Origin: Promethearchaeia archaeon
Lineage (GTDB): Archaea > Asgardarchaeota > Lokiarchaeia > Sigyniarchaeales > SOKP01
Length of the DNA: 62,157 bases
Reading direction: 5' to 3'
Assembly: GCA_029856125.1 (NCBI GenBank)
Contig: JAHQWJ010000012.1
Location: 1-62,157, forward strand
Part shown: positions 5,237-56,311 of the stretch, in pieces
Numbering within the stretch: position 1 is the stretch's first letter
How the letters are laid out: each line of letters opens with the position of its first letter
Notes under the pieces: generated by a model
What the model was told of the DNA's origin: nothing
The model's input: the letters and a program-made list of their open reading frames with translations, nothing else
Databases searched by the model: none
Position numbers and translations under genes: made by a program

Positions 5237-6133
5237 ATGGCCGAAGATCAAGAAAATCAAAACGAGGTAGAAAGCAGTACGGAGAAAGAAGAACCAAGAG
5301 AGGATCGAGACGATTTAGACATATATGTCTCAGAAATGAAACATCTTGAGACAGATTTTTCTGATTTGGAAGATTTGGATTTCGAAGAATTAAAAGAAAT
5401 GCAAGAAGCGATTGCAAAAGTAAAAGAATTAGAAAATTTAGAGGGTGACGAGAATGTTGAGGAATTTGTCCCAGATCTTCAATCATCTGAGCAAGAAGTT
5501 TATTTAGCACAAAAAGAAGCGATGATAAGTGATTTTTCAGATATTGAAAGTATCGATTTTGAGGAACTGCAAGAAATGCAAAAAGCAATTGAATCCGTAA
5601 AACAAGAAGAGATTCAAGATTTTGGATCTAAAATAAACCAGATGGCAGAAACCGATCCAATATCTTCAGATTTGGAAGAAAGGATCAAACAAGAACTTTT
5701 AGAAAGAAAACAGGAAGCTAAAGAAGAAGTAATCACTCCTGAAATTTTCATTGAGCGTAATAAGGATAAACGCGATAAAATTTGGTATCATGCGCTTTGT
5801 TATTTAGTTTATGAGGCAGAAGACAACATTGCGAGTAAGACGCTTCTATATGAAATGTTGAAGGAAGTTACGAGCAAAAGTCCCATAGATCCCATCCCAG
5901 AAAACCAGTTTTATTTTGGATTAGGTTACATTTTAAGATTATCACTAAATGATAAACAAGTTGTTAAATACATCAAAGGAGGTAAATTTAAGGTTAATGT
6001 AGCGGAAAAAGGGATAACAGATCTTCTAAACATAATAGGGGAACCAATAAACAGACGACCCATTCTAACAGATGATGAAAAAAAGAAAATGTATGAAGAA
6101 TTTCTCAATGACGATTTTTTTGATCAGATTTGA
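5237..6133 (+). CDS. Hypothetical protein: acidic N-half with two internal repeats, C-terminal winged-helix-like domain
   Basis: 298-aa ORF; repeats DFSDLEDLDFEELKEMQEAIAKVK and DFSDIESIDFEELQEMQKAIESVK. Confidence 0.75.
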   Translation: MAEDQENQNEVESSTEKEEPREDRDDLDIYVSEMKHLETDFSDLEDLDFEELKEMQEAIAKVKELENLEGDENVEEFVPDLQSSEQEVYLAQKEAMISDFSDIESIDFEELQEMQKAIESVKQEEIQDFGSKINQMAETDPISSDLEERIKQELLERKQEAKEEVITPEIFIERNKDKRDKIWYHALCYLVYEAEDNIASKTLLYEMLKEVTSKSPIDPIPENQFYFGLGYILRLSLNDKQVVKYIKGGKFKVNVAEKGITDLLNIIGEPINRRPILTDDEKKKMYEEFLNDDFFDQI

Positions 6134-44142: not shown

Positions 44143-44517
44143 TTGTCAGTAATGGAGTCTGTCGATACCTTAGATGATCTTTTAAAAAAATTACTTGGAG
44201 CAATTCCAGAAGTAAAATCTGCCGCTATTGTGTCTGCTGAAGGGCTTCCTATTGCCTCGGCACTCCCACAAGGGGTCGATGAAACAAGAATCGCAGCGAT
44301 GACTGCAGCTTTACTCTCCTTATCCGAAAGAGCAATAATCGAAATGGGAAAAGGGGATTTTGATCAGTTATACATTAAAGGCTCTGAAGGGTACCTTTTG
44401 GTCATGCAAGCAGGTCCAAACGCGGTTCTGACCGTTTCTACAACTAAAGATGTTAGGCTTGGGTTAATCCTGTTAGATTGTAGGAGGACGTGCGAAAAAA
44501 TAGCTCAATTGATTTAA
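44143..44517 (+). CDS. Roadblock/LC7 (MglB-like) protein
   Basis: SAAIVSAEGLPIAS, RIAAMTAALLSL, QLYIKGSEGY, LGLILLD. Confidence 0.92.
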   Translation: MSVMESVDTLDDLLKKLLGAIPEVKSAAIVSAEGLPIASALPQGVDETRIAAMTAALLSLSERAIIEMGKGDFDQLYIKGSEGYLLVMQAGPNAVLTVSTTKDVRLGLILLDCRRTCEKIAQLI

Positions 44518-50017: not shown

Positions 50018-50218
50018 ATGATTATCCCAATTCGCTGCTTCTCATGCGGCAAAGAAATAGCTTCCCGTTACAAACCCTATTTAGAACTATTAGAAAAAGG
50101 CGAATCTGCAAAGGAAGCTTTTAAAAAGTTGGGTCTCGAAAGATTCTGTTGCCAACGCATGATTGTTGGACATGTAGATTTAATCGATGATCTTTTGAAG
50201 TTCCCAAGATTGCAGTAA
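50018..50218 (+). CDS. rpoN: DNA-directed RNA polymerase subunit Rpo10 (N)
   Basis: MIIPIRCFSCGK, RFCCQRM, HVDLID. Confidence 0.97.
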   Translation: MIIPIRCFSCGKEIASRYKPYLELLEKGESAKEAFKKLGLERFCCQRMIVGHVDLIDDLLKFPRLQ

Positions 50219-50287
50219 TCTTAAAAAAAAGAATAGATTATAGATTTATTAGCTTTAAAAGATATATTTTACTCTTTCTTAGCCAAC
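50214..50287 (+). repeat. Direct repeat, left copy (74 bp)
   Basis: AGTAATCTTAAAAAAAAGAATAGATTATAGATTTATTAGCTTTAAAAGATATATTTTACTCTTTCTTAGCCAAC; matches 55547..55619. Confidence 0.95.
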
Positions 50288-52185
50288 GAATAACCTCGTT
50301 CTTCTGTCTCTGCAAGAAAAAGGTCTACAATTGCTAACCATTTATTTTTTGATTCCAAATCGCTTAAAATTTTACTTGTTAATTCTTTTCCTTTCTTAAG
50401 ATATTGAAACGCTAATTCAATATTTTCCAGTGCTATATAACAAATTCCGATTTTGATATAAGTCTGATAGATAAACCAATCATTAGAATCAATTTCTATG
50501 GCTTTTTGGAATTCTTGTATGGCTTTTTCATATTCTTTAAAGTGTATTAAGATTTCTCCGTATGTATCGCGATAAATTCCTTTTTCTGGTTCTTTTTTTA
50601 CGAGTTCGCGAAGAATTTCCAATGCTTCTTGTTTTTTATCTAAATAAGACAACCAATACGCTTTATAATTACGAAGAGAATTGTCTTTTGGATATTTCTC
50701 GATTAATTCTTCAATAATTTCCAATCCATCTTCTACATTTTTATCTTTTTTGAGAGTAAACGCCTTTTTTATCATGATATCGATTTCCTTCTCAGGAAAT
50801 AGCTTTAACATGTTTTCTAATTCCGTTAACACATCGTTATATTGGTTAAAATAGAGTAAGATTCGTATTTTTGAATTAAATAAATCGTAATTCTTTGGAG
50901 TTAAGGAAATTTCATTTTCAATTTCTTTAATTTTTTCCATGTATTGAGATTCTAATGCTTCGGAATTATGCGATTGCATAAAATCCGTCATATTTTGCCA
51001 AATAATTCCTTCTAGTTTATCATGTATCTCTACTAATTCTTTTTTTATCTCAATTTTATAGGCTAAATATTTCATATATCCTGGTAAAAATTCTCTCAAT
51101 GATTCTCTGAAATCCTTATGAAATAAAATTTCACAAATTTCTTCAAGGATATCATCTATCATAGAATTCAGGCTTCCTAACTCTGTAAATTTTTCTAAAT
51201 ATTTGTTTGTTGCTATATGTTCTTCAGTAATAGCTCGAAGGATCTTCTCTAATTTTTCGTCAAAATGGAAATAATAATATTTATTAGGAGAAATATCTAA
51301 TTTAAAAAATTGTAAGTCATATAAATCGCTTTCTACAATCTCATTCACCCAAAAATCGAGCATTCTCTTTTCTATTTTGTAAAATCTCGAAAATTCCTCA
51401 AGTGATAGATAATCAGGATAAAAATCGGGATGATTGATTGAAATATAAAGCAAAATTATATAAAAATCCTCTTCATCTTTTAAAATTGTGCTAACTTTTA
51501 AATAATCTAACTTTAAAACCTTATTGAGAAACCTAAATTTAACACGATCGTCAGCAATTTTGAACTTATCAAAAAATTGGGATGCCTTTGTTGTAATTTC
51601 GTCGATTCGTTTTCTTTCCTCATCTAAAATTGTTTGTCTGTCCAAATCGTAATTTTGTAGTATCCTTGAATATTCTGATTTACCTGATTGAGTAATGAGA
51701 TATCTTTTATTTTCTTTGATGATATATCCCTTTTGAACTAATGAACTTAGAGCTTTTGATAAAGAGGATTGATTTATAGATAAAGGTTGTTCAAGAAAGT
51801 CAGACCTTTTGCAAAAGCCGTTATTGTACACCATCCATATAATCCAATGGGAATAATTTCTCCCCCTTTTTAATATTGCGTCAGGGGGGAAACTTATTGT
51901 TCGTTCTCTGCTTCTTTCTTTTGACAACTCTTGAAATTTCTTTATCCCTTCTGGAGTTATCTTGTATTGTCCTCTTGTTAACTTCTCGATATGTCCTTTA
52001 AGGATTAATTTTGTTAAATGACGAGATATTGTCGAGATAGGGATTTCGATAGGTTTTTGTTCAAAATTCGACCATTCACAACTTTCATTATTGGCTAGCA
52101 TCCAAAGAATTATATGATCATAATTCTTTCTATTAAGTTTTGAAGGATTAAGAATTTCTTCAGAGGGATAATTTACTTTTTCCAT
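50269..52185 (-). CDS. Tandem winged-helix (MarR-like x2) plus TPR protein
   Basis: Two repeats HxIxWM..NN...STISRHL / SSLSKAL...YxITxxG; C-terminal TPRs (DTYGEIL..YEKAIQEFQKAIE). Confidence 0.8.
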   Translation of the reverse strand: MEKVNYPSEEILNPSKLNRKNYDHIILWMLANNESCEWSNFEQKPIEIPISTISRHLTKLILKGHIEKLTRGQYKITPEGIKKFQELSKERSRERTISFPPDAILKRGRNYSHWIIWMVYNNGFCKRSDFLEQPLSINQSSLSKALSSLVQKGYIIKENKRYLITQSGKSEYSRILQNYDLDRQTILDEERKRIDEITTKASQFFDKFKIADDRVKFRFLNKVLKLDYLKVSTILKDEEDFYIILLYISINHPDFYPDYLSLEEFSRFYKIEKRMLDFWVNEIVESDLYDLQFFKLDISPNKYYYFHFDEKLEKILRAITEEHIATNKYLEKFTELGSLNSMIDDILEEICEILFHKDFRESLREFLPGYMKYLAYKIEIKKELVEIHDKLEGIIWQNMTDFMQSHNSEALESQYMEKIKEIENEISLTPKNYDLFNSKIRILLYFNQYNDVLTELENMLKLFPEKEIDIMIKKAFTLKKDKNVEDGLEIIEELIEKYPKDNSLRNYKAYWLSYLDKKQEALEILRELVKKEPEKGIYRDTYGEILIHFKEYEKAIQEFQKAIEIDSNDWFIYQTYIKIGICYIALENIELAFQYLKKGKELTSKILSDLESKNKWLAIVDLFLAETEERGYSLAKKE

Positions 52186-52246
52186 GATTAATGAAAGCTA
52201 AATAAAATGTTTATTAGGTATAAATTGGGAACATTTCTATTTATAT

Positions 52247-52299
52247 CTTTTTTTCGGAACTTCCACTTTTTTTCAGAATTTCCGTGGAATTGTCGAAAG
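52247..52299. promoter_or_regulatory. Candidate operator: two direct copies and one inverted copy of a TTTCrGAAyTTCC-like motif
   Basis: CTTTTTTTCGGAACTTCC (52247-52264), CTTTTTTTCAGAATTTCC (52266-52283), GTGGAATTGTCGAAAG (52284-52299) in a divergent intergenic region. Confidence 0.45.
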
Positions 52300-52380
52300 T
52301 TCAACTATAAATGGATGGATATTAACATTTTTCATTGATCATCATTTTGATGATAAAATTTAAACAAAAACTAAATTTAG

Positions 52381-52788
52381 TTGATAAGAAAAATGACCGA
52401 AATCAAAAAACTTACAAAAATCGTACTAATAGTGTATGCTATTATTTTTTTCATATTTGGGGTCAACCTTACATTTCTATACGATATGATCATGAATCCT
52501 GAAGGTTGGACAAACCCCTATTTCCCAAGAATGTTTGGGGGAATTAATTTCGTATCTGCCATTTTCGCGATATTAATGCTTCGCAAAAAGGAGTGGGAAG
52601 AAATTAAATTGACATTTGCGTATTTTATTGGTATACTTATATCGACATTACTCATCGAAATTTCAGTTTTATCTATATTAGGCTCTACTTTTGGAGCTTC
52701 GACGATTCAACTAGGTATGTCTACTATAATCTTAGAGGCTGTACTTTTAACTCTTGGAATTGTCTCTTATATCAAACAGAGAAGTTAA
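52381..52788 (+). CDS. Small 4-TM membrane protein
   Basis: Four hydrophobic helices; NPYFPRMFGG loop. Confidence 0.75.
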   Translation: MIRKMTEIKKLTKIVLIVYAIIFFIFGVNLTFLYDMIMNPEGWTNPYFPRMFGGINFVSAIFAILMLRKKEWEEIKLTFAYFIGILISTLLIEISVLSILGSTFGASTIQLGMSTIILEAVLLTLGIVSYIKQRS

Positions 52789-52838
52789 ACGCCATAATTT
52801 AAAAATTTCTAATTTTTTTTTTTTCTTTTTTTTTTAAT

Positions 52839-54872
52839 ATGTATTCGGAGAATATTTACATTAGATTTAAAACAATAATTAGCTTAGATATTAATAAGAG
52901 TATAATCCAAACAAATGAGTATATGTCTCATCCTGCGCTGAATCAATTAACAAGAGTGGAAGAGCTTTTTGATTCTGGTTATCTTGATGAAGCTTTTGAA
53001 ATATTGAACGATCAAAGTCAATATGAGGGGCTTAATCTTCAGCAAAAAAGTCATTTTCAGTTTCTTAAGGGATTAATTCTCTTATATCTTAATAAAGGCG
53101 AAGATCTCATTAGTTTAGGCGAGACAATTTATAAAGAAGGTCAAAAATGTGATGATAATCTCCAATCTTTTGATGGATTATTTTTTATTATTACTGGATT
53201 AGCTATAGCTGGTAAATTTGAGGAAGCGTTCAAACTTTTTGAAAAAGCTGAGTTAGTATTAAAGCATATTTCGAATGTATCTAAAGAAATTATAACTCGA
53301 AGAAAAGTTCGTCTAAGTGTAGCAAAAGCCTTTGTTGGATTGCATGGTGGTAAAGTAGATTTGGTTGAGACATCTTTAGAGTGGATCTTAGATTCACAAG
53401 AAAAATTCGATAAATCATTTGAAATCGTCTGGGCTAATCTTATAATGGCAAGTTATTTATTACGAGTAAAAAGCAAGTTTGATCTTTGTAGGGAGCACAT
53501 CACAAACGCATTATCTATTGCAAAGGAAATTAAATTTAATCATTACTGGATTGCTCTGTGTCAACTCTATTTTGGAGTATATTATGAAACTATTGGCGAA
53601 ATGGATACAAGCTTGAAATATAACATAAAGAGTCTAGAAGTATTTAAAAAGATAAATAGTAGTTTTAATATTGCAATTCTATTAAATAATATGGGGGGTT
53701 TATATGGTGAAATTGGTGAATATGAACTTGGTGTGGAACATTTAGAGGAAAGTATAAATCTTTTAGAGCAGATTCCTCAAGGTTTTTTTTCTATTGAAGG
53801 CATTATTGAAAGTTTAATAATTTTAGCCGCTGAACATGGAGATAACGAATGTGCTCAAAAATATTTTGATCGTTTGGAAAATATTTATAACCAGAAAAGA
53901 GGCGATGGAATTAACTATGGTTACAAATTCACTAAAGCTCTAATTTTAAAAACAAGTTCTCGAATCCGAGATAAAGCTAAAGCTGAAGAATTATTTAAAG
54001 AACTTATAGAAACTGATACTATATTTTTTGATCTTATTATAAAAGCTCATATCCATCTTTGTGACATACTTCTCACGGAATATCGTATAGAGAATAATAT
54101 TGAGGTACTTAATGAACTTAATTATTATATTTCCAGGCTATTGGATATTGCTGAAAAGCAACATTCATATCTAGTTTTTTGTGAGACGTTCATATTACGA
54201 GCCAAATTAGCCTTAATTAATTTCAATATGAAAACAGCAAGGCGTTATTTAACTCAAGCTCAAAAAATAGCGGAATCTTATGGTATAAAACGGTTAGCAA
54301 TGAAAATTTCATACGAGCATGATGAATTACTTAGAAAAACTAAAATGTGGGAGAATTTAAAAACTTCAGAAGTATCTCTATCTGAACGTTTGGAGCTTGC
54401 TGGTTTGAACGAGCAAATGGAAAATATGGTAAAAAAGCGAATGATTGAAATTCCAGAAATATCAAAAGAAGATCCTGTTATGCTATTAATCTTAACGGAG
54501 GGTGGCAATCTATTATTCTCTAAAAAATTTGTAGAAGATTTTTCTTTTGAAGATGACATTTTAGGAGGTTTCCTAACCACTATAAATTATATTATCAGTG
54601 AGGTATTTTCTGAAGGTCTTGATAGAGCAGTTTTTGGGCCATTTACTCTTCTTATGATGCCCGTTCAACCATTTTTAGTATGTTATATCTTTAAAGGAGA
54701 CTCGTATTTTGCTCACAATAAAATTAAAAATTTTATTGATTCCATACAGAATGAAAGTTGTATTTGGCAATCTTTCCAGAATTTTTTCCAAAAGAGTAAA
54801 TCAGTTCAATTAAACGATATTCCTTCGCTTGAGTCTATGGTAATGGAGATTTTTGTAGAGAAAAAAAATTGA
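52839..54872 (+). CDS. TPR-repeat protein with C-terminal longin-like domain (start probably ATG 52923)
   Basis: TPRs (LLNNMGGLYGEIGEYELG); C-terminal MLLILTEGGNLLFSKKF...ILGGFLTTI...FLVCYIFKG longin-like topology. Confidence 0.75.
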   Translation: MYSENIYIRFKTIISLDINKSIIQTNEYMSHPALNQLTRVEELFDSGYLDEAFEILNDQSQYEGLNLQQKSHFQFLKGLILLYLNKGEDLISLGETIYKEGQKCDDNLQSFDGLFFIITGLAIAGKFEEAFKLFEKAELVLKHISNVSKEIITRRKVRLSVAKAFVGLHGGKVDLVETSLEWILDSQEKFDKSFEIVWANLIMASYLLRVKSKFDLCREHITNALSIAKEIKFNHYWIALCQLYFGVYYETIGEMDTSLKYNIKSLEVFKKINSSFNIAILLNNMGGLYGEIGEYELGVEHLEESINLLEQIPQGFFSIEGIIESLIILAAEHGDNECAQKYFDRLENIYNQKRGDGINYGYKFTKALILKTSSRIRDKAKAEELFKELIETDTIFFDLIIKAHIHLCDILLTEYRIENNIEVLNELNYYISRLLDIAEKQHSYLVFCETFILRAKLALINFNMKTARRYLTQAQKIAESYGIKRLAMKISYEHDELLRKTKMWENLKTSEVSLSERLELAGLNEQMENMVKKRMIEIPEISKEDPVMLLILTEGGNLLFSKKFVEDFSFEDDILGGFLTTINYIISEVFSEGLDRAVFGPFTLLMMPVQPFLVCYIFKGDSYFAHNKIKNFIDSIQNESCIWQSFQNFFQKSKSVQLNDIPSLESMVMEIFVEKKN

Positions 54873-54977
54873 TAGAAGTTTACAATTCAACTATTCCAAT
54901 TCACCAAAATTTTATATTAACCTAAACCTAATCTTCATTAAAAATAAATTGTTTTTTCATTAAGCAATAGAAATCTA

Positions 54978-55532
54978 ATGAAGAACTCTGAGGAATTTCG
55001 ATTTAAGATAGTAGTCATTGGAGATGGAGCTGTAGGTAAAACATCCTTAATTAAAAAATTCACGAAAGGGACATTTGAAACGGATTATGTAAAAACGATA
55101 GGGGCTCAGTTTTCAAAATATAACAAAGAAATTAATGGAGATATGATTAGATTAATATTCTGGGATATTGCAGCTCAAGAAGATTTCAATTTTCTGCATC
55201 ACTTGTTTTATAAAGAGACTAAAGCGGCAATTATAGTATGTAGCCTTGAAGAAAACGATTTAGGAAAAAACAGCTTCACACATATAGAAAATTGGTATAA
55301 CCAACTAAACAAGTATTGTAGCGGTATACCTGTTTTATTATTCGCCAATAAAGTTGATTTAGTAAGCAAAAATGAAATTAACAAAGCTAAAATTCAAAAC
55401 ATCGTTAAAAAATATAATTTTTTCGAATATTTCACTACTTCCGCAAAAACTGGAGAAGGTGTAATCGAAGCTTTTAACGTTATTATTGAAAAATTATATT
55501 TCAAGTATAAGCAACTTTCTGCTAATGGATAA
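54978..55532 (+). CDS. Rab-like small GTPase with variant G3 (WDIAAQ)
   Basis: GDGAVGKT, TIGAQF, WDIAAQE, NKVD, TSAK. Confidence 0.92.
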   Translation: MKNSEEFRFKIVVIGDGAVGKTSLIKKFTKGTFETDYVKTIGAQFSKYNKEINGDMIRLIFWDIAAQEDFNFLHHLFYKETKAAIIVCSLEENDLGKNSFTHIENWYNQLNKYCSGIPVLLFANKVDLVSKNEINKAKIQNIVKKYNFFEYFTTSAKTGEGVIEAFNVIIEKLYFKYKQLSANG

Positions 55533-55546
55533 CTCCGTTTAAATCA

Positions 55547-55619
55547 AGTAATCTTAAAAAAAGAATAGATTATAGATTTGTTAGCTTTAAAAGATGTATT
55601 TTACTCTTTCTTAGCCAAC
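55547..55619 (+). repeat. Direct repeat, right copy (73 bp)
   Basis: Same as 50214..50287 except two A>G substitutions and one fewer A in the A-run. Confidence 0.95.
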
Positions 55620-55687
55620 TAAAAATAGTTTTATCTAGAGTTATAATTTAGAGTTATAATAAGGATTTAACTATATTTATTATATTT

Positions 55688-55870
55688 TTATTCTTTCCCA
55701 TAAAGCGCTGTCCATCTTACTTTACGCGGGTTTCGTTTCTGAACCAATGTAGCAGTTCTGCATTTATGAGTGCAAAAGGTAAAAATTGTTCCATCTTTTT
55801 TGATATACATGTGTCCTTTGCCGATTGGGATATCATAGCCACAAAAAGAGCATTTTTTTACTTTAACCAT
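55688..55870 (-). CDS. rpl24e: 50S ribosomal protein L24e
   Basis: CSFCGYDIPIGKG, DGTIFTFCTHKC, NPRKVRWT. Confidence 0.97.
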   Translation of the reverse strand: MVKVKKCSFCGYDIPIGKGHMYIKKDGTIFTFCTHKCRTATLVQKRNPRKVRWTALYGKE

Positions 55871-55903: not shown

Positions 55904-56311
55904 CTATTCCCCTGCTGATTTAAAAAGTTCAGTTTCCCCGTATTTTAAAACTTTCAGGTTGATTAATGTCATATCGAAACTTATCTCGCTTCCTCTAATC
56001 ATCTTCCTTCGCTTTTGCCCTTTTCTTGTAGGCTTATACCCGATCCCTCGTTTTGAAACAAGAATCCTTTTCTTTACGGGACCGTGAACATCCTTTCTCA
56101 TTGGGAAACCGCTAGCGTCTGAACCTCCGGTTATTTCAAACTCGTAATTCGGAAATCCAATTAGGCCGCCATTAATCGATTCACCAATCTTTTTCGCTTC
56201 AAAAAGGCGTGATTTCTTTTCATCTATTTCAATTAGCTTAGATAAACCTTTTCCGGGACCTGTGTTTCCACCAGAAATATTTAATTTGTAAACTCTTTTC
56301 TCTGAACTCAT
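55904..56311 (-). CDS. rps6e: 30S ribosomal protein S6e
   Basis: KLNIS, ITGGSDASGFPMR, GQKRRKMIRG. Confidence 0.96.
   Translation of the reverse strand: MSSEKRVYKLNISGGNTGPGKGLSKLIEIDEKKSRLFEAKKIGESINGGLIGFPNYEFEITGGSDASGFPMRKDVHGPVKKRILVSKRGIGYKPTRKGQKRRKMIRGSEISFDMTLINLKVLKYGETELFKSAGE

Follow-up and report, generated by a model that had tools for sequence, protein, structure and literature searches.

A Small-GTPase and Longin Gene Module Inserted between Long Direct Repeats at the rpoN Gene End of a Promethearchaeia Archaeon

INTRODUCTION

Close direct repeats in excess are common in prokaryotic genomes, and cis-mobilisable elements, islands that lack an integrase, carry att direct repeats that cover the end of a gene. 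In the parts of the literature considered here, insertion with long target duplication goes back to Nobusato et al. (2000) and was extended by Furuta et al. (2010; PMC2853133). No archaeal case passed the screen of the latter study, in which gene fusion at a junction was also seen (PMC2853133). Homology-facilitated illegitimate recombination, in the portions of the papers cited here, has been shown by experiment only in transformable bacteria (PMC5361080, PMC2884548). Touzain et al. (2010) reported that 10-18% of variable segments are flanked by direct repeats, of which 66-94% are shorter than 30 bp (PMC2884548). In Asgard archaea, signature genes are described as patchy and lineage specific, a pattern ascribed to transfer, loss, and duplication in the part of the study drawn on here (bioRxiv 10.1101/2020.10.19.343400). 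Here, we compare with these systems a cassette of four signalling genes next to rpoN, the gene for RNA polymerase subunit N, in a marine Promethearchaeia archaeon. The window is the whole 62,157-nt stretch analysed (positions 1 to 62,157 of contig JAHQWJ010000012.1, GenBank assembly GCA_029856125.1), and its genome, a metagenome-assembled genome (MAG), is called G000. The cassette encodes a winged helix-turn-helix (wHTH) protein with tetratricopeptide repeats (TPR), a membrane protein, a TPR-longin protein, and a Ras-family GTPase; an earlier reading of the sequence alone, hereafter the original prediction, had proposed that it entered between direct repeats.

RESULTS

Repeat pair and empty site

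The cassette, with an interior of 5.26 kb, is enclosed by two direct repeats on the plus strand, a left copy at 50214-50287 (74 nt) and a right copy at 55547-55619 (73 nt). The copies differ by A/G at 50248/55580, by A/G at 50264/55596, and by one A fewer in an A-run of the 73-nt copy, exactly the two substitutions and one indel that had been claimed. A genome-wide BLAST of the 74-mer, the check that had been proposed, returned these two copies only in the 3.69-Mb assembly; the pair matches with an E value of about 1e-27, and the next best match has an E value of 0.025. Consequently, the repeat is neither a chance match nor a dispersed element. It had no Rfam match at E values up to 1, and the target is not a tRNA or other known RNA. 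With two copies and no Rfam match, both a dispersed element and an RNA were rejected as identities of the repeat. Furthermore, the independent assembly L042 spans the entire cassette arrangement at 99.8% identity, and many other assemblies contain each junction, which excludes the assembly artefact that would have removed the ground from the original prediction.

Single-copy empty sites exist in relatives, so the cassette is an insertion. The order at these sites is rpoN, one repeat copy, a gene for a 150-aa flavodoxin on the opposite strand, rpl24e, and rps6e. It was found in seven related lineages (G003, G007, G010, G048, G049, L033, and L219) and in L032, L034, and L038; relatives with an identical RpoN protein have this arrangement, and the flanks of the L219 allele are 97% identical to the window. 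A situation in which all relatives carry the four genes without repeats is thereby discarded. The shape of the empty site was foreseen less well. Removing one copy and the interior joins rpoN to rpl24e on paper, as the original prediction had it, whereas real empty sites hold the flavodoxin gene there, and the predicted order of rpoN, one copy, and rpl24e was seen in none of the fetched loci. In more distant members of the genus, rpoN stands directly opposite rpl24e with an unrelated spacer between them; thus, the flavodoxin gene is probably itself an earlier arrival at this position.

Since the empty sites carry the single copy in the rpoN-flavodoxin context, the repeat is resident DNA, made up of the last 5 nt of rpoN with its stop codon, the spacer between convergent genes, and the last five codons and stop of the flavodoxin gene. 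The rpoN gene (50018-50218, plus strand; Pfam PF01194, E value of 4e-26) runs into the left copy with these 5 nt, and the left copy differs at one position from the single empty-site copy in L032, L034, and L038. The flavodoxin gene end (LAKKE*, 50269-50286, minus strand) now forms the C terminus of the wHTH-TPR gene; the flavodoxin gene of the empty site has identical last codons and stops at an equal distance from rpoN. The right copy continues into an intact flavodoxin gene in L045, L046, L052, L055, and G052. In the window, it is followed by a scar (55620-55625) where about 460 bp were later deleted. This deletion, also present in L042, L056, and L057, removed the flavodoxin gene and kept its promoter region, as the sequence past the scar matches the flavodoxin upstream region of the empty allele L219. 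The conserved right flank begins with rpl24e (55688-55870, minus strand; Pfam PF01246), and the next gene is rps6e (55904-56311).

Alleles at the rpoN site

Four alleles occur at this site. Allele A is the empty site; allele B comprises the cassette, the right copy, and the intact flavodoxin gene (L045, L046, L052, and L055); allele C is the window type with the flavodoxin deletion (also L042, L056, and L057); and four other assemblies end exactly at the fork between B and C. In allele D (L031 and L044), a membrane-protein gene follows the Rab-like gene and replaces the right copy and most of the flavodoxin gene, without duplication. A pattern scan at JGI returned three contigs only, all with these alleles. 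An 89% DNA-identical copy of the allele D gene (L031:395-1150) is the cargo of another repeat pair on contig C18 of G000 (C18:129843-130667), and the same orphan membrane-protein gene is thus found at two insertion hot spots in different strains.

The rpoN gene end has been hit more than once, as seen in two other members of the genus, L014 and L015, where a degenerate duplicate of the rpoN 3' end lies downstream of rpoN (46 nt at 89% identity in L014). In L017 (G011), an inverted L7Ae-S28e block is now downstream of rpoN.

Origin and exchange of the module

The order of wHTH-TPR, membrane protein, TPR-longin, and Rab is found at several addresses across the family, often in arrays, and no flanking repeats were present at the other addresses in the stretches viewed. 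Matches to the wHTH-TPR family were obtained in 103 of the 131 family genomes searched, with up to 9 per genome, and in 1 of 19 genomes from other families of the order. Close homologues are from Promethearchaeota (Lokiarchaeia) MAGs. In the Rab and wHTH trees, the rpoN-site copies adjoin those of G014 and lie far from the genome's own C126 paralogue, and both trees rule out the cassette as an intragenomic copy of that paralogue. Similarity to the module copies of G014 and G013 ends where the right copy begins (55547), and the module address of these two genomes is empty here. The 14 nt in front (55533-55546, plus strand) are the donor tail of the module, and the right junction at 55546/55547 shows 1-3 nt of microhomology. 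Near a module array in G017 (L090:1-589), an open reading frame (ORF) contains a repeat unit of about 69 nt several times in tandem.

In genome G052, which belongs to another species, the cassette occupies this site too, and its right junction is identical. The wHTH DNA of G000 and G052 is 98-100% identical, against 79-92% for the flanks, and closer relatives are without the cassette. This discordance in identity indicates a recent exchange of the cassette between the two species. The spread of GTPase modules that the original prediction held possible is borne out in that the module moved both between chromosomal addresses and between species. Both repeat copies are resident-like in both species. 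Dating the insertion by the three differences between the copies was rejected, as the copies have apparently been overwritten by recombination; with copies that are also trimmed, the case for a fairly recent integration, made from copy similarity, is weak.

Left end of the insertion

The left end differs between the two species, which means that no fixed att core is present in all carriers. In G052, the wHTH gene has its native end, and the left end is formed by 46 nt of the repeat, 20 nt that correspond to flavodoxin positions 129-148 counted from the repeat start, and about 200 bp of other DNA. In the window, the native C terminus of the wHTH-TPR protein is cut off, and the native ends of other copies differ from LAKKE*. 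The original duplication was probably at least 148 nt and was later trimmed to 74 nt here; otherwise, G000 and G052 would represent independent left joins. Whichever way the left end arose, the duplicated length is not fixed.

An imperfect 40-nt hairpin with a U-tract further on, predicted by RNA folding (50248-50287, minus strand), is a candidate terminator. Its fold z score is -1.7 in the left copy, -3.7 in the right copy, and -2.6 and -2.2 at two empty sites. Both G000 breakpoints are at the foot of the hairpin, and the repeat has T-rich runs on both strands. A scan for promoters and terminators gave results at chance level with a predictor built for bacteria, the host being an archaeon. 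The repeat may be a two-way terminator that serves both new convergent gene pairs and that would probably have been retained for this reason.

Similar scars in the genome

Close repeat pairs in the genome comprise 41 direct and 3 inverted ones. In 32 of the 41 direct pairs neither copy is in an ORF, while 74% of random windows lie in one. Manual removal of paralogue and in-gene pairs left 25 pairs at about 20 sites, with repeats of 36-237 nt enclosing 0.5-5.7 kb, and no sequence is shared between these sites. Single-copy empty sites were shown for C1, C4, C18, C124, and C143; C142 and C126:306k were compared as well and are not clear-cut. Serial arrays are found at C124 and C143. In the C1 and C4 pairs, the resident gene follows on from one copy and a different allele from the other, with the look of one resident and one incoming end.

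Some of these sites can be described further. At C143:77728-80298 (L117), three copies of a 50- to 140-nt segment after a thermosome gene separate two cargo genes; G048 is without the first cargo gene and G056 without both, as in a serial additive array without an integrase. At C124:10483-12240 (L123), a perfect 36-nt repeat and a partial third copy surround two cargo genes; the site is single-copy empty in G048 and G052 and holds other cargo in G007 and G056. At C1:5772-11630 (L109), a 75-nt duplication of a gene 5' end surrounds 5.7 kb of cargo; the live start resembles the incoming allele, and the orphan copy retains the resident promoter. The duplicated gene resembles one for a pyruvoyl arginine decarboxylase.

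The rate of such scars was measured within this genus, by comparison with 1.1 Mb of G007 (89% identity). Indel junctions grade continuously from target deletion to target duplication, and 49 of 96 indel loci are replacements without duplication. Long direct repeats flank 7 of the 116 variable segments, in comparison with 6 of 1500 random ones (0.4%), and inverted repeats flank none; the pairs of G007 itself number 9 direct and 0 inverted. Our search, with most subscription journals beyond it, found no literature on such scars in Asgard archaea.

Cargo genes

The four accessory genes between the copies are those that had been claimed. The double winged-helix and TPR protein (638 aa; 50269-52185, minus strand) has Pfam matches to both wHTH and TPR. 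The small membrane protein (131 aa; 52393-52788, plus strand) has no Pfam or NCBIfam match; by hydropathy, it has three strong and one weak hydrophobic segments, so the earlier description as a protein with four transmembrane segments holds for the membrane location and is better given as three to four segments. The third gene (52839-54872, plus strand; Pfam TPR_12) encodes a TPR protein with a C-terminal longin domain at about 54450-54869. A Pfam search of this protein did not name a longin domain, and the Atlas yielded no more than a lead. The structural model (pLDDT of 79) has a predicted beta-beta-alpha-beta-beta-beta-alpha-alpha topology, and its Foldseek matches are the AP-2/AP-1 sigma subunits, zeta-COP, TRAPP, and Mon1-Ccz1 (best E value of 3e-5; TM scores of 0.5-0.6); structure prediction and Foldseek thus back the longin fold that had been proposed, and the predicted fold is taken as confirmed. 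The GTPase (184 aa; 54978-55532, plus strand) matches Pfam Ras with an E value of 1e-39 and has the corresponding motifs. Its C terminus has no cysteine, in contrast to the prenylation cysteines at the C terminus of eukaryotic Rabs, and its sequence marks it as Rab-like and not as a Rab. Gene order and fold suggest that the divergently transcribed wHTH-TPR protein would be a regulator of the other three genes, which would provide a membrane protein, a GTPase, and a longin protein acting as scaffold or exchange factor.

No integrase, transposase, or other mobility family was matched in the four genes by Pfam and family searches, in agreement with what the first reading had noted. The GC content at third codon positions (GC3) of the cargo is within the genome range, from the 8th to the 90th percentile, and a foreign composition was rejected on these values. 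A transposon or insertion sequence was also rejected; no inverted pair joining both cassette ends was among those listed, no transposase was matched, and the duplication is 74 bp.

The G3 motif of the GTPase (55160-55180) is WDIAAQ in the window, while L052 and L055, which are sister strains, have WDIAGQ. An identical Gly-to-Ala change occurs separately in G042, and it may affect GTPase switching. Between 52400 and 54700, metagenomes show much more polymorphism in the membrane-protein and TPR-longin genes than in the wHTH and Rab genes, and separate parts of the former match different relatives; this mosaic probably stems from recombination among paralogues.

Two other features of the window lie apart from the cassette. 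A roadblock/LC7 gene (44143-44517) is directly upstream of the rpoE-spt4 genes, an arrangement conserved in relatives, and an 89-nt internal repeat (5354-5619; 72% identity, copies 177 nt apart) is apparently a coding repeat.

DISCUSSION

We consider it fairly probable that congeneric foreign DNA was joined at two points by general recombination or repair and later trimmed, and that the resulting allele spread by homologous recombination. A fragment from a related Promethearchaeota species, with the wHTH-TPR, membrane protein, TPR-longin, and Rab genes, would have been attached through two joins made independently of each other. One would lie at the rpoN stop codon, where there are 1-3 nt of microhomology, and the other further along in the flavodoxin 3' end, and the resident DNA between the two points would have been left on both sides. 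The allele comparison shows a second step, in an order that we infer, in which the left copy was probably trimmed to 74 nt and the wHTH-TPR gene fused to the flavodoxin stop, with a different outcome in G052, and the flavodoxin gene behind the right copy was removed in some strains. The identities suggest that homologous recombination in the conserved flanks now carries the filled allele from strain to strain and from species to species. The enzymes involved would be those of general recombination and repair. The first step may have been an anchored (homology-facilitated) integration or the repair of a staggered break; two other sites, C1 and C4, favour the anchored form. The recombination-mediated capture that the original prediction gave as its second option fits best.

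Several observations weigh against such a capture. A microhomology of 1-3 nt is too short for diagnosis, and the comparisons gave no direct donor; the closest copy at another address is 87-92% identical in protein. Both repeat copies are resident-like, and gene conversion or later recombination is needed as an extra step. The figure of 148 nt is derived from a 20-nt match in a single genome, G052; in three other alleles, the hairpin is weak; and a helper element could be absent from an assembly that is a MAG.

One alternative is an integrase acting in trans from a virus or plasmid, which would target the flavodoxin 3' end or the rpoN stop, with the repeat as its att block and the cassette as a cis-mobilisable island. 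The repeat covers a gene 3' end and a terminator, as att blocks of islands targeting protein genes often do, the two breakpoints are within 1 nt of the same place, and the right junction is unchanging in two species. What sets this locus apart from an att site is the left end, which differs between species (74 nt versus at least 148 nt), along with the roughly 20 similar scars without a common sequence and the other module addresses without flanking repeats in the stretches viewed. The assembly has a single tyrosine recombinase, whose best match is archaeal XerA, in a MAG that can miss helpers; no large serine recombinase and no PF07508 match were found in it. No circle or excision joint was seen in runs X1, X3, X5, and X6 or in the fetched loci, which are contigs only, with rare forms dropped. 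The repeat and the wHTH gene were not found among viral contigs, and a viral origin was rejected. With variable duplicated length, no common motif, no circle seen, and one XerA-like recombinase in the assembly, the att-like site mobilised in trans that the original prediction put first is not supported, and we rate it as quite improbable.

A tandem duplication of the repeat and flavodoxin gene, after which the module replaced most of the first flavodoxin copy, would draw on an event type that is frequent here (the replacements without duplication at 49 of 96 indel loci, and the allele in L031) and would leave flavodoxin fragments in the left copy, as observed. No locus holds the tandem flavodoxin allele, and the module's right end stops exactly where the right copy begins, a fit that a later, separate replacement would not require; we give this order of events little credence. 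It is also unlikely, if less so, that the filled state is old and that the module was lost from the empty relatives when the repeats recombined, as in a deletion switch. If a crossover fell between the two substitutions, the ancestral single copy would be restored, so L219 (97%) could be such a scar, and G052 and G000 are not mutual closest relatives by flank identity. Such a history needs several independent losses (in G003, G007, G010, G048, G049, and L033) and leaves the origin of the repeat unexplained, and vertical descent cannot account for a wHTH gene that is 98-100% identical to that of G052. Finally, the MAG has 6% contamination and a polymorphic locus forks assemblies, which could suggest an artefact or chance repeat; the three copy differences are consistent in many independent assemblies, and L042 spans the cassette, so that we attach almost no weight to this explanation.

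The patchy, multicopy small GTPases and longin proteins of Asgard archaea are usually ascribed to transfer, loss, and duplication, with the mechanism not in view. Here, for one relocation of a GTPase/longin module, the empty site and the boundary on the donor side are visible together with four alleles that coexist and an exchange across species, which suggests that no mobile element is needed for the module to move. The scar type is already known from bacteria; what is new is the host and the cargo. It is possible, if doubtful, that the family has a sequence-independent, integrase-free form of gene capture that duplicates 36-240 bp at gene ends, builds serial arrays, and is a main route by which Rab/longin modules multiply and spread between species. 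Comparative genomics on the roughly 20 sister scars could put the mechanism to the test. If true, integrase-free capture would explain in mechanistic terms how eukaryotic signature genes come to be spread so patchily.

Among the known systems, the cassette has the anatomy of an insertion with long target duplication, outside the restriction-modification subclass. The insert is below 20 kb (5.26 kb), and the duplication exceeds 30 bp and is unique in the genome. Variable length, overlap with a gene 3' end, an empty site in relatives, the lack of a mobility gene, and a junction fusion are also common to both. Restriction-modification cargo, the filter of that screening, is replaced here by a signalling module, and this case further differs in its archaeal host, in the roughly 20 scars with unrelated cargo in one genome, and in its later trimming. 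Integrase-less att islands share direct repeats over a gene end, the lack of an integrase inside, and an empty allele in relatives; in contrast to them, no fixed core, common att motif, helper integrase, or circle was seen here.

As a process, homology-facilitated illegitimate recombination seems the best analogue. It shares with our sites a fixed junction paired with a variable one, microhomology over a few nucleotides, gene ends displaced as orphans, successive additions at one site (C143 and C124), and the pairing of resident and incoming alleles (C1 and C4); at the rpoN site, the resident look of both copies leaves neither of them to mark the anchor side. Long repeats of 36-237 bp flank 6% of the variable segments here, a value not strictly comparable with that of the bacterial repeat-flanked segments (PMC2884548), for which the thresholds differ. 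The Asgard GTPase and longin neighbourhoods, in the part of that study used here, share a Rab-like GTPase adjoining a longin-fold protein (10.1101/2020.10.19.343400). The order of wHTH-TPR, membrane protein, TPR-longin, and Rab is not among the operons quoted in that part (10.1101/2020.10.19.343400), and at the rpoN site the move of one such module can be traced at single-base resolution.

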